Of a DNA stretch of 64,000 nt, positions 4,082 to 58,490 are shown piece after piece. Source of the stretch: a virus. The position numbers and the translations under genes are program-made. The DNA lies in IMG/VR virus record IMGVR_UViG_3300025120_000020. One strand, written 5' to 3'. Each line of letters starts with the position of its first letter. Position 1 is the stretch's first letter. Below the pieces are notes generated by a model, which ran no database searches, was not told the DNA's origin, and worked only from the letters and a program-made list of their open reading frames with translations.

Positions 4082-4669
4082 ATGGATTATGACCCAACAG
4101 ATCCTGAATTAACTGATTTAGTTAAACAGAGTGACCATGAAGAAGCTTTAGGTTTGCTGATAGAGAGGCATTCAGGAATTTATGTTGATATGGTGAGGAG
4201 ATACGCATCAAAATCCCTACCTTCAAATGACGTTATTGACATAATTGATGAAAAAGATTACATAATTTACAAAGCAGCCTTAGATTATGACGAAAACAAA
4301 GCTAAGTTTTCCACCCATGTTGGCAACAAAGCAAAATATCTCTGTTTGAGCAAAAAAACAGCAAGGAAAAACGGTAAAATCATGTTGCCATTCGATTCAA
4401 TCGATTACTCCAAAGAGTCTGACGACTTGCACCCAGATGAAAGTTGCGAAATTAAAGAAAGCATGTTTTCAATTGTCGAACTTATAAATAGTCATCGCGA
4501 TGAAAGAGTAAAAACTATTTTTAAAGAACGCTACTTTGGAGGAGAAAAAGGTAAACTTCAAACTTGGAAAAATATTGGAGAACAAATTGGTGTCTCTGCT
4601 CAGGGCTGCATAAACATTCATGACCGAACATTAAAAGAATTTAAAAAACAATTTAAAAAAAATGCATAA
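4082..4669 (+). CDS. Phage sigma-70-family RNA polymerase sigma factor
   Basis: Region 2-like ALGLLIERHSGIY...KAALDYDENKAKFSTHVGN and region 4 HTH IFKERYF...TWKNIGEQIGVSAQGCINIHDRTLKEFKK. Confidence 0.75.
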   Translation: MDYDPTDPELTDLVKQSDHEEALGLLIERHSGIYVDMVRRYASKSLPSNDVIDIIDEKDYIIYKAALDYDENKAKFSTHVGNKAKYLCLSKKTARKNGKIMLPFDSIDYSKESDDLHPDESCEIKESMFSIVELINSHRDERVKTIFKERYFGGEKGKLQTWKNIGEQIGVSAQGCINIHDRTLKEFKKQFKKNA

Positions 4670-41552: not shown

Positions 41553-41581
41553 TTGCACCAATCAGAAAAATAAAGTAGAAT
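41553..41581 (+). promoter_or_regulatory. Sigma-70-type early promoter
   Basis: TTGCAC-17-TAGAAT, ATG 6 nt downstream. Confidence 0.75.
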
Positions 41582-41587
41582 TCACAC

Positions 41588-41779
41588 ATGACCGCAACCG
41601 AAGAAGCACTAGCAGCAATGGCAAAAGCAGAAGCAGGATGGGACAAATTAGCAGAGGAGACCGTTGAGGTTTCTGGCCAGTTCCAGAAAGAATGCCAAGA
41701 GTTCCGAAAAGAGCAAAGGGAATGGTTCCTTGAAAATGTGCCTGACCAGCCGAAGCAAGACCCTAGATTCCTAGCCTAA
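41588..41779 (+). CDS. Small helical protein, paralogue of 44046-44198
   Basis: Shares A-M-x-KAE-x-x-WDK and EVSGQFQKECQE with 44046-44198. Confidence 0.75.
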   Translation: MTATEEALAAMAKAEAGWDKLAEETVEVSGQFQKECQEFRKEQREWFLENVPDQPKQDPRFLA

Positions 41780-41806: not shown

Positions 41807-42031
41807 ATGAATCTCCACAATTTCAAATATCAGTCCCCAATGGGGAAAGCAATCTTGATTCTCACCTATCCCATTCTCTTCCCTCATCACATTGGGGAGT
41901 TGATGCGTGAGCGAAAGTTGAAGCGAATTATCCGCAAGGGCATCGCGGATGCATGCAAAGAGCCGCAGGGCGTGACTGCGGAAATCGTCAACGAAGCCTC
42001 GTGCGAACTCCGCATGATTTACGGCAAGTAA
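41807..42031 (+). CDS. Hypothetical protein
   Basis: 74-aa ORF; stop codon 6 nt before the mini-tmRNA. Confidence 0.65.
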   Translation: MNLHNFKYQSPMGKAILILTYPILFPHHIGELMRERKLKRIIRKGIADACKEPQGVTAEIVNEASCELRMIYGK

Positions 42032-42037
42032 AAAGTT

Positions 42038-42103
42038 GGGTGGCCAATGGTTTCGACGGGACGCGAGTCTCGGATGGGGGTTCGATCCCCCCGCCATCCA
42101 CCA
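42038..42103 (+). ncRNA. tmRNA tRNA-like domain only (mini-tmRNA), 66 nt
   Basis: Acceptor GGGTGGC/GCCATCC with G3.U70, discriminator A, encoded CCA; D-loop CAATGGTTTCGA; helix CGGGAC-GCGA-GTCTCG; GAT linker; T arm GGGGG-TTCGATC-CCCCC. Confidence 0.85.
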
Positions 42104-43632: not shown

Positions 43633-43845
43633 ATGACCAACCAAGACAACATCACCCGCCTGATCAAGAAGCAGTTTGTTTACACCACTTCTAACAATGG
43701 AAATCTTCGCATGTATCAACTTCGCGGGGTTGAGCATTCCACCAAGGACTTCGCAGTTTGTAAAGTGGTTGACGTAAGTCACGACAGCAAGACGGGCGAC
43801 GAGGAAATTTTCAGAACTCTCTACTTCTCACGCATAGAAAAATAA
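43633..43845 (+). CDS. Early hypothetical protein (leaderless)
   Basis: TAAAAT 6 nt before ATG 43633; C-terminal FRTLY echoes FRTLH of 42647-42982. Confidence 0.65.
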   Translation: MTNQDNITRLIKKQFVYTTSNNGNLRMYQLRGVEHSTKDFAVCKVVDVSHDSKTGDEEIFRTLYFSRIEK

Positions 43846-43868
43846 TTAAAAAAACATTTAAAAAGGGC

Positions 43869-43897
43869 TTGCGCCCATCCCCCAAATCCTTTATACT
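43869..43897 (+). promoter_or_regulatory. Sigma-70-type promoter upstream of the tRNA-like RNA
   Basis: TTGCGC-17-TATACT. Confidence 0.75.
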
Positions 43898-43911
43898 CCC
43901 CCCAGTAAGAA

Positions 43912-44025
43912 AGCTCTATAGTTTAAAAAGTAAAACATTCTCCACGGCCTCTCCAATCATAAGCCACCGCAACCCAAATGGTTCGGGCGAGAAAGACAAA
44001 GGTGCAATTCCTTTTAGAGCAACCA
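43912..44025 (+). ncRNA. tRNA-like RNA with 46-nt insert in place of the anticodon loop
   Basis: Acceptor AGCTCTA/TAGAGCA + A + CCA; D stem GTTT/AAAC; anticodon stem TTCTC/GAGAA around 46 nt; T arm AAAGG-TGCAATT-CCTTT. Confidence 0.7.
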
Positions 44026-44045
44026 ATTTTCCAGACACAAACACT

Positions 44046-44198
44046 ATGAACTTATCAAAAGAATCACAGGAAGCAATAGAAGCAATGAAGAAGGCCGAAG
44101 AGAATTGGGACAAGATGGTTGCTAGAGCTTCCGAGGTCTCAGGTCAATTCCAGAAAGAGTGCCAAGAGTTGAAAGTTGAATTGGAGGAATTAAAATAG
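44046..44198 (+). CDS. Small helical protein, paralogue of 41588-41779
   Basis: MNLSKESQEAIEAMKKAEENWDKMVARASEVSGQFQKECQELKVELEELK. Confidence 0.75.
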   Translation: MNLSKESQEAIEAMKKAEENWDKMVARASEVSGQFQKECQELKVELEELK

Positions 44199-44202
44199 AG
44201 TC

Positions 44203-44400
44203 ATGAAAGAAGAAAAAAATCCACTCCTCGCGAGTGCTGAAACCGCTTTAGCTTTTGAAGAAGCAATGAAAGAATACATCGCGGAGCTTGAGGTTGATGG
44301 TGTAGTTAGTTACAGCCACTTTACTTTGCGCCGTTTACATAATCGTTTTGGCAGGGAAGCTGTCCAAGGATGGCTGAATAATCACTTTGATAATAAATAA
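44203..44400 (+). CDS. Hypothetical protein
   Basis: 65-aa ORF in the same operon. Confidence 0.65.
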   Translation: MKEEKNPLLASAETALAFEEAMKEYIAELEVDGVVSYSHFTLRRLHNRFGREAVQGWLNNHFDNK

Positions 44401-58414: not shown

Positions 58415-58490
58415 TGGTGGTGCAGTGAGATTTGAACTCACACATTGACACTCTTTGTATCGAGCCGTCTCTACATTGGACTATGCACCC
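58415..58490 (-). tRNA. Aberrant tRNA or tRNA pseudogene, anticodon unassignable
   Basis: GGGTGCATAGTCCAATGTAGAGACGGCTCGATACAAAGAGTGTCAATGTGTGAGTTCAAATCTCACTGCACCACCA; intact T arm and CCA, 6-bp acceptor, irregular anticodon arm. Confidence 0.6.

Follow-up and report, generated by a model that had tools for sequence, protein, structure and literature searches.

A probable non-decoding tRNA-like RNA with a two-hairpin insert in place of the anticodon loop in a family of marine viral contigs

Does a cloverleaf in which the anticodon loop has been replaced by 46 nucleotides (nt) represent a transfer RNA (tRNA) that carries an intron, or an RNA that does not decode at all? This question is raised by positions 43912-44025 (+ strand) of the IMG/VR virus record IMGVR_UViG_3300025120_000020, which was analyzed as a single stretch of 64,000 nt, referred to here as the window. 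A first-pass annotation had described at this locus a promoter, a cloverleaf with its arms and a 46-nt insert, and had interpreted the whole as a non-decoding tRNA mimic rather than as an intron-bearing tRNA. Direct reading of the sequence, for which 43700-44250 was inspected, found each of the listed elements in place, and the comparative evidence bears out the interpretation. Based on sequence comparison, we consider it very probable that 43912-44025 is a functional gene for a non-decoding tRNA-like RNA. With considerably less assurance, we lean toward the view that this RNA acts in trans through the binding of a protein.

The RNA is 114 nt in length, including an encoded CCA. Its first base is A1 at 43912, and the CCA is found at 44023-44025. 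The acceptor stem is formed by AGCTCTA and TAGAGCA, with A1 and A72 mismatched and with A as the discriminator base. The D arm, GTTT-AAAAAGT-AAAC, occupies 43921-43936, and its loop retains one G (a candidate for G19), the GG being absent. The 5' strand of the anticodon stem, TTCTC (43938-43942), pairs with GAGAA (43989-43993), as supported by the consensus fold and the pair table. Between these two strands, in place of the anticodon loop, lies the 46-nt insert (43943-43988), and this contains two hairpins. Hairpin 1 (43946-43965) has a 3-bp base, GGC/GCC, and a variable top. Hairpin 2 (43967-43986) had originally been given as AACC-CAAAT-GGTT; both of the small hairpins proposed for the insert are present, but the second is longer than had been noted, reading CCG-C-AACC / CAAAT / GGTT-CGG, with 7 bp, one bulged base, and a 5-nt loop. 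AGAC forms the variable region, and the T arm, AAAGG-TGCAATT-CCTTT, spans 43998-44014. The alignment of homologues places the 3' strand of the acceptor stem (TAGAGC), positions 72-73, and the CCA at 44015-44025. When the window copy was folded with RNAfold, the cloverleaf with its two insert hairpins was recovered as both the minimum free energy structure and the centroid structure.

Models of tRNA detect the locus to differing extents. The Rfam tRNA model (RF00005) matched 43912-44022 with a score of 40.9 bits and E = 3.2e-5 for the 64-kb window; because this score exceeds the gathering score of 29, the RNA qualifies as a four-arm cloverleaf under RF00005. The alignment reads 45 nt as an insertion after position 32, and homologues scored 41.9-42.1 bits against the same model. 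ARAGORN, a tRNA finder of the sort that the first-pass annotation had proposed as a check, called no tRNA at 43912-44025, its calls in the window being three ordinary tRNAs (Met, Glu, and Leu) at 55.6-57.5 kb. A covariance model that we built on the 31 distinct sequences of the family (R1) found a single copy in the window at 139.9 bits, and one copy per locus at 125-141 bits when applied to related loci. Like the canonical tRNA of RF00005, the RNA is a cloverleaf that keeps U8, A14, U54-A58, C56, and an encoded CCA; unlike it, the RNA has no anticodon loop, and G18 and U55 are replaced, with A at 18 and G55. The candidates left for elbow contacts are G19-C56 and U54-A58. Loss of the D-loop GG and of the T-loop TTC, as had been noted, was confirmed and extends through the family, in which the D loop reads AAAAAGU or AACAAGU, with UGCAAUU or UGCAAGU as the T loop (U54, G55 instead of U, C56, A58, and either T or G at position 59).

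Pattern scans of IMG/VR and of a metagenome collection yielded approximately 70 homologous loci with 31 distinct versions of the RNA, and it is to these 31 sequences that the counts of variants and pairs refer. All of the loci are on contigs of marine viruses or marine metagenomes, obtained from ocean samples that include those of Tara. The RNAalifold consensus consists of an acceptor stem of 6 pairs with 1:72 unpaired, a D stem of 4 pairs, an anticodon stem of 4-5 pairs, a three-way junction, and the T stem. The three-way junction bears hairpin 1 on its 3-bp base and hairpin 2, which has 3 + 4 bp around the bulged base and the loop CNAAU. All of the variants fit this cloverleaf with its three-way junction, and the same architecture was obtained from the de novo folding of five divergent variants. 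Standard pairs account for 99.1% of the pair cells, compared to 33-54% after the 3' partners have been shifted by 1-3 columns. Recurrent two-sided changes affect only three pairs of the stems; all of these changes are compensatory, and the intermediates were never seen. At pair 12:23 of the D stem, 22 sequences have U-A and 9 have C-G; at the middle pair of hairpin 1, 24 have A-U and 7 have G-C; neither pair is ever broken. The second pair of hairpin 2 is C-G in 19 sequences and U-A in the other 12. The G-C state of hairpin 1 was found in combination with four different loop sequences, indicating that the pairing has been kept through recombination or repeated change. There are two one-sided changes in the stems. 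One is an A.A at 27:43, the first pair of the anticodon stem, in 7/31 sequences, the other four pairs of this stem being invariant; the second is a G-to-A change in variant L089 (2 loci), apart from which the T stem is invariant. All further variation falls in loops, the bulge, junctions, and positions 72/73.

Variation within the insert is distributed unevenly. Hairpin 2 is nearly invariant, its variable sites being limited to one pair, the bulged base, and position 2 of the loop. The top of hairpin 1 differs by homologue: in some it is a loop of 14 nt, in others a stem with a tetraloop (TCGG-tetraloop-CCGA), and in others still an extension of 39 nt, with the insert as a whole reaching up to 71 nt in the family. 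The RNA has lengths of 113, 114, 116, 117, and 139 nt, and because these lengths vary by indels of 2, 3, and 25 nt, a coding explanation is excluded. Position 72 is A, G, or C opposite an invariant A1, such that 1:72 is unpaired in 31/31 sequences, and position 73 is A or G. The CCA is encoded in every variant except one, in which CAA takes its place (L112 and two contigs identical to it). Pairwise identity averages 87% over the RNA, 72% over the 60-nt promoter, 55% over the DNA 61-150 nt upstream, and 58% over the 150 nt downstream. The comparison indicates that selection at the RNA level is maintaining this RNA within an early region that is otherwise heavily reshuffled.

The reshuffling itself could be taken to mean that the element is a dead tRNA gene, or a recombination linker homogenized by gene conversion, and is functionless as an RNA. 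The early region is indeed highly mosaic. In addition, L168 contains a partial copy (4314-4351, +) that covers ~38 nt from the start of the RNA through the 5' strand of hairpin 1 and then gives way to unrelated sequence, indicating that a recombination breakpoint lies inside the element. An element of this kind does not account for recurrent two-sided stem changes that are all compensatory, for other variation that is almost confined to unpaired positions, or for a promoter that travels with the element. Furthermore, L075 carries two diverged paralogous copies in one contig, both of which keep the fold, and the present set includes no relatives with randomly broken stems. We consider a functionless element to be highly improbable.

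A different possibility is that the RNA is a decoding tRNA from which a small intron is removed by an unknown route. Deletion of 39 nt after C32 leaves a plausible loop, C-U-C-G-G-G-C, with U33 and G37. The would-be anticodon, however, is CGG (Pro) in some homologues and CAG (Leu) in others, the body being identical in all other respects, and because the switching base covaries with its partner in hairpin 2, it is the pairing that is selected and not the anticodon. Group I introns of tRNA genes are about 200 nt or more in length and have a P1-P9 core. The first-pass annotation had argued that the insert is too short for such an intron, and this is correct: the insert is 46 nt, far under group I size, and no match to Intron_gpI or to any ribozyme or other intron of Rfam was obtained at E <= 1 or 10. 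An intron of the archaeal/eukaryal type was also rejected, since the conserved structure does not accommodate a 3-4-3 bulge-helix-bulge and since the mature anticodon would change between homologues. Position 1:72 is unpaired, and inspection of the window revealed neither an RNA ligase nor a splicing enzyme. More generally, a decoding tRNA was rejected on account of the branched insert of 46 nt (up to 71 nt) between positions 31 and 39 and the lack of a conserved triplet in any loop. We find removal of a small intron scarcely credible. The earlier suggestion that the RNA might be a decoy for anticodon nucleases is likewise unlikely, as no mimic of an anticodon loop is conserved and most homologues lack the UCAUAA found in hairpin 1 of the window RNA.

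The RNA is preceded by a sigma-70-type promoter (43869-43897), identified by direct reading and by its conservation, that consists of TTGCGC (43869-43874), a 17-nt spacer, and TATACT (43892-43897). Upstream of this is an A-rich upstream (UP-like) promoter element (43836-43868) with a AAAAATAATTAAAAAAACATTTAAAAAGGGC block that recurs upstream of most homologues; beyond the block, the sequences further upstream are unrelated among homologues. In most homologues the -35 is TTGCGC, TTGTCC, TTGTGC, or TTTTAA and the -10 is TATACT or TATAAT, with a constant spacing to the RNA. The promoter described in the first-pass annotation is thus conserved in most homologues, but it falls below the threshold of a consensus promoter scan due to its weak -35, and the call consequently depends upon the conservation. 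A 14-nt 5' leader (43898-43911), CCCCCCAGTAAGAA-like and of constant length in most homologues, extends from the -10 box to base 1 and is presumed to be a substrate for RNase P; across most homologues the leader is C-rich and 12-14 nt long. We infer that the leader is cleaved by RNase P.

On the 3' side, the trailer ATTTTCC... (44026-44045) shows conservation of ATTT(T/C)CC after the CCA in nearly all homologues. The first downstream open reading frame (ORF), of 50 amino acids (aa), is located at 44046-44198 (+) and is taken as co-transcribed with the RNA. This 50-aa ORF is found directly 3' of the RNA in 28/67 family loci. The elements that follow the RNA vary by phage, and include the 50-aa protein, a 65-aa protein, a lysozyme-family protein (Pfam Phage_lysozyme), another promoter, and a small RNA related to transfer-messenger RNA (tmRNA) that we refer to as the mini-tmRNA. 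Because the downstream genes change and the promoter is conserved, the promoter and RNA together behave as a portable cassette in the mosaic early region.

A purely cis-acting 5' leader is the main rival explanation for these data. According to this explanation, which resembles tRNA punctuation, the tRNA shape serves only for RNase P and 3'-end cutting or for protection of the messenger RNA (mRNA), and the released RNA is functionless. The RNA is in every case the first element behind a promoter, and the next start codon occurs ~20 nt past the CCA in the window. Furthermore, no terminator-like sites were found on the + strand from the end of the RNA to 45300 (the end of the scanned stretch), and a following gene that differs by phage is as expected of a portable promoter-leader cassette. 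The leader explanation accounts for the position of the RNA but not for hairpin 2. A processing signal needs only the acceptor/T-arm half, leaving unexplained the near-invariance and compensation in hairpin 2 as well as the covariation in the D stem. In addition, several relatives have a promoter or the mini-tmRNA, not an ORF, straight after the RNA. We consider it unlikely that the RNA serves solely as a leader.

We favor, by a modest degree of confidence, an RNA that functions in trans. The RNA would be transcribed early in infection, its 5' end being made by RNase P and its 3' end being trimmed by the tRNA 3'-end enzymes; processing by tRNA enzymes is expected because the acceptor/T-arm half that they recognize is retained. 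Retention of the coaxial acceptor/T-arm helix, the elbow candidates, the short leader, and the CCA leads to the expectation of a stable RNA of ~114 nt, which could accumulate and act by binding a protein. The tRNA half would provide for processing, for stability, and perhaps for tRNA mimicry toward a host tRNA-binding factor, with hairpin 2 potentially serving as the specific binding module. Given that hairpin 2 is invariant and hairpin 1 is free to vary, hairpin 2 together with the junction is the candidate for a specific binding surface. The proposal in the first-pass annotation of a scaffold that displays a module fits both the conserved structure of the insert and the nearly invariant sequence of hairpin 2. 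In bacterial initiator tRNA an open 1:72 weakens the binding of EF-Tu, and the unpaired 1:72 of the window RNA would be predicted to keep it off EF-Tu and out of the ribosomal A site.

The partner of a trans-acting RNA might also be another RNA, in which case the insert would supply an antisense seed that pairs with host or phage mRNA or with ribosomal RNA (rRNA), the tRNA body acting as a scaffold. A different RNA, suspected to be from gut phages, has an identical T arm and shows the 16S rRNA 3'-end sequence CACCUCCUUA in an enlarged loop, demonstrating that a tRNA-like body can display a sequence suited to pairing. The conserved unpaired stretches of the present family are very short, however, namely the loop CNAAU of 5 nt and the 1-3 nt of each junction. 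A long single strand occurs only at the top of hairpin 1, the part with the least conservation, which in many homologues is a closed stem-tetraloop. Since the conserved stretches free of pairing measure only 1-5 nt, a protein target is likelier than a base-pairing target, and we regard regulation by base pairing as distinctly improbable.

Several points weigh against a functional RNA that acts in trans. The folding-energy z-score is weak, being -1.5 for the window copy and -0.5 to -1.8 among the tested variants, and folding energy by itself is not significant for the window RNA. The family is narrow, representing one group of recombining marine phages, with an effective sequence number of 0.94 for R1. 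The three covarying pairs represent few events. The first-pass annotation had looked to compensatory change in the stems among homologues, and this was found in the D stem and in both insert hairpins, but the acceptor, anticodon, and T stems are essentially unvarying and hence uninformative on pairing. No partner protein is evident. No tRNA-related enzymes were found among the 79 ORFs of the window, and neither a CCA-adding enzyme nor SmpB was found in two partial relatives, although with these being 35% and 49% complete this is a weak negative. The small protein that is often beside the RNA is acidic, and it is absent from that position in many loci; a strict pair of this RNA and this protein is accordingly not supported. 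Lastly, the lack of a terminator would be equally compatible with a leader that acts only in cis.

Stable tRNA-like RNAs of phages date back to the T4/T5 era, no role having been assigned to them, and the biological roles of RNAC and RNAD of T4 are unknown (PMC3014915). In GenBank AY543070 (T5), RNA2 is annotated as 'tRNA-like stable RNA with unknown functions' and RNA3 as 'putative tRNA-like RNA'. Like the window RNA, RNA2 and RNA3 are encoded by a phage and built on a tRNA frame that comprises an acceptor stem, a D-like arm, and a T arm, and in the computed fold of RNA2 a long structured insert (125 nt) replaces the anticodon arm. Unlike the homologues of the window RNA, they score only 11 and 14.6 bits with R1, below ordinary T5 tRNAs, and there is no homology. 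The T5 RNAs are found inside a tRNA cluster, whereas the window RNA is a solitary gene with a promoter of its own in an early region of gene cassettes. RNA2 has a canonical T loop and scores under the Rfam tRNA threshold, whereas the window RNA has the T loop UGCAAUU and scores above it. RNAC and RNAD of T4 (species 1 and species 2 RNAs, NC_000866 70908-71171) are also small stable phage RNAs from a tRNA region, with RNAC having a tRNA-like T arm and paired ends. They differ in being co-transcribed at the end of the tRNA operon, in being larger, and in having other folds; R1 gave 8.8 bits on part of rnaC, below ordinary tRNAs, and the two RNAs are not homologous. Based on a tRNA frame without a decoding arm, as known here from sequence, the window RNA fits the class of phage tRNA-like stable RNAs. 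It can be classified as the same kind of RNA as those of T4 and T5, and as a separate, new family. The family is distinguished by a three-way-junction insert with an invariant bulged pentaloop hairpin, by an elbow with A at the place of G18 and with G55, and by a 1:72 that is always open.

Additional comparisons were made to other tRNA-related molecules. The acceptor end of the window RNA, with position 1 unpaired followed by G2:C71, C3:G70, A72, A73, and CCA, has what we take to be the same letters as the end of E. coli tRNA-fMet. Unlike in the bacterial initiator tRNA, positions 72 and 73 drift among the homologues and only the open 1:72 is conserved, and because of this drift an initiator identity is not conserved. 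The tRNA-like domain of tmRNA (RF00023) is similar in being an anticodon-less tRNA mimic with an encoded CCA, and it occurs in the same early region of the same phages. That domain is marked by G3:U70, by the lack of a D stem, and by a GGxUUCGAC motif in the D loop. The window RNA differs in having C3:G70 and a real D stem that covaries; there was no tmRNA match at 43912-44025, and this identity was rejected. A bacterial Y RNA or YrlA module was also rejected, as the ends form an acceptor stem with CCA and not a Ro-binding stem, and there was no match to a Y RNA family. The sequence GCUCUAUA at the 5' end resembles boxA (presumably GCUCUUUA) but was set aside because the tRNA fold accounts for it. 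In engineered tRNA scaffolds, a structured RNA is likewise grafted on the anticodon stem, giving processing and stability. Ponchon and Dardel reportedly described in 2007 a laboratory tRNA scaffold for recombinant RNA with the insert in the anticodon stem. By analogy, the window RNA may represent a natural use of this principle.

The mini-tmRNA is found in the window at 42038-42103 (+), 1.8 kb upstream of the tRNA-like RNA. It is 66 nt in length and contains the tRNA-like domain only, a helix capped by a GNRA tetraloop standing in for the entire mRNA-like part. It scored 48.1 bits against the Rfam tmRNA model, for which the threshold is 47. The two RNAs share the early region in 34/67 family loci. 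The acceptor stem of the mini-tmRNA exhibits compensatory change (GGGUGGC/GCCAUCC compared to GGGUAGC/GCUAUCC), with G3:U70 and the CCA always kept. A 9-nt identity between the tRNA-like RNA and the mini-tmRNA, CCAAUGGUU, was dismissed as coincidental, since the stretch varies among mini-tmRNA variants. In most loci a 74-aa ORF with a basic RERKLKRIIRK patch (41807-42031 in the window) is located directly upstream of the mini-tmRNA.

The phage seems to deploy several tRNA-shaped RNAs that are incapable of decoding. The tRNA-like RNA and the mini-tmRNA may form an early set of decoys, directed at translation factors or at defenses that target tRNA. In its most elaborate form, the proposal is of a natural tRNA scaffold that is early, abundant, EF-Tu-evading, and host-matured, that captures a host protein by means of hairpin 2, and that together with the mini-tmRNA makes up a two-RNA decoy set disabling host translation surveillance or acceptor-end-directed defense; we view this combination as speculative and, taken as a whole, doubtful. 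If true, it would assign a function, the first, to the tRNA-like stable RNAs of phages, a class known for half a century. A decoy or a protein-capturing scaffold would explain why phages have repeatedly retained non-decoding tRNA bodies, and would be a natural precedent for tRNA-scaffold RNA engineering. If the RNA is only a processing leader, then the result is a modest one, a new and unannotated RNA family for phage annotation. The family is well suited for experiments, being short, equipped with its own promoter, widespread in ocean viromes, and paired with a tmRNA that has the tRNA-like domain only; an invariant hairpin 2 beside a variable hairpin 1 offers built-in mutant controls.

We also examined the extent to which the RNA is represented in public data. 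No match was found in GenBank phages (50,697 records) to the 5-kb region by megablast or to the 201-nt element by blastn, and a scan of bacterial genomes gave only two chance matches, these being in GC-rich coding sequence and of no help in pointing to a host. The insert contains no known riboswitch, ribozyme, or small RNA motif of Rfam. The hairpin 2 motif is without an Rfam match and, chance matches aside, is confined to the tRNA-like RNA within viral contigs. No cultured relatives of the window phage were found, and the window terminase is only ~25% identical to terminases of Bacillus and Clostridium phages. The nearest record is a 48-kb IMG/VR contig in which the same RNA is present. Public gene calls for assemblies of the same locus (L181-L190) have either an empty gap of ~450 nt or a spurious ORF of 82-84 aa across the RNA. 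The RNA is thus unannotated in public data or is mis-annotated as protein.

Other tRNA-like sequences were encountered in related and unrelated contigs. A second, unrelated tRNA-like RNA is found at L141:100-227 (-), L152:3821-3949 (-), and L029:5246-5372 (+), as well as in L025 and L122; it sits 0.35-1 kb downstream of the first RNA in some relatives and is absent from the window. In this second RNA the acceptor is GGCCCGG and the T loop is canonical; the 'anticodon' stem has 9 bp, the insert measures 56 nt and contains two hairpins together with the conserved single strand UUAUAACCAAAU, and compensatory change is seen at three pairs among three sequences. The RNA with the 16S rRNA sequence mentioned above is found at L003:10104-10184 (-) and ~45 other IMG/VR loci (e.g. 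L005, L008, L014, L018, L036), where it heads a tRNA array. Its T arm, AAAGGUGCAAUUCCUUU, is identical to that of the window RNA, its acceptor is GCCGGGG/CCCCGGC, and a D stem is lacking; the loop of its arm, UUCACCUCCUUAC, is 13 nt long and contains the anti-Shine-Dalgarno 3' end of 16S rRNA. These loci come from several IMG/VR samples, about half from 3300045988, and may derive from gut phages. In phage contigs of 120-140 kb (L020:2433-2530, +, and L051), a tRNA-like RNA follows tRNA-Pro and tRNA-Gln. Its T arm is the same as that of the window RNA and its D arm nearly so, and it further has an arm of 3 bp with a loop of 8 nt as well as a long variable hairpin; it scored 38 bits with R1 and was not called by ARAGORN. 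Within the window, near the tRNA cluster, an odd tRNA-like sequence at 58417-58490 (-) scored 24.9 bits with the Rfam tRNA model (below 29) and 18.2 bits with R1. It has a good acceptor and T arm and an anticodon arm of 20 nt with an 8-nt loop, and ARAGORN made no call.

The ORF at 44046-44198 (+) has a paralogue in the window at 41588-41779 (+). Both encode small acidic proteins that share EVSGQFQKECQE, with 59% identity over 39 aa (E = 2e-15). The protein of 44046-44198 has no Pfam match, and that of 41588-41779 was scanned only in a pooled search. There are one to three copies of these paralogues per related phage, often but not always beside the tRNA-like RNA. Lastly, at 41553-41590 (+), the sequence TTGCAC, a 17-nt spacer, and TAGAAT are followed by a 63-aa ORF whose ATG is 6 nt past the -10 box, an arrangement that looks like that of a leaderless early mRNA.

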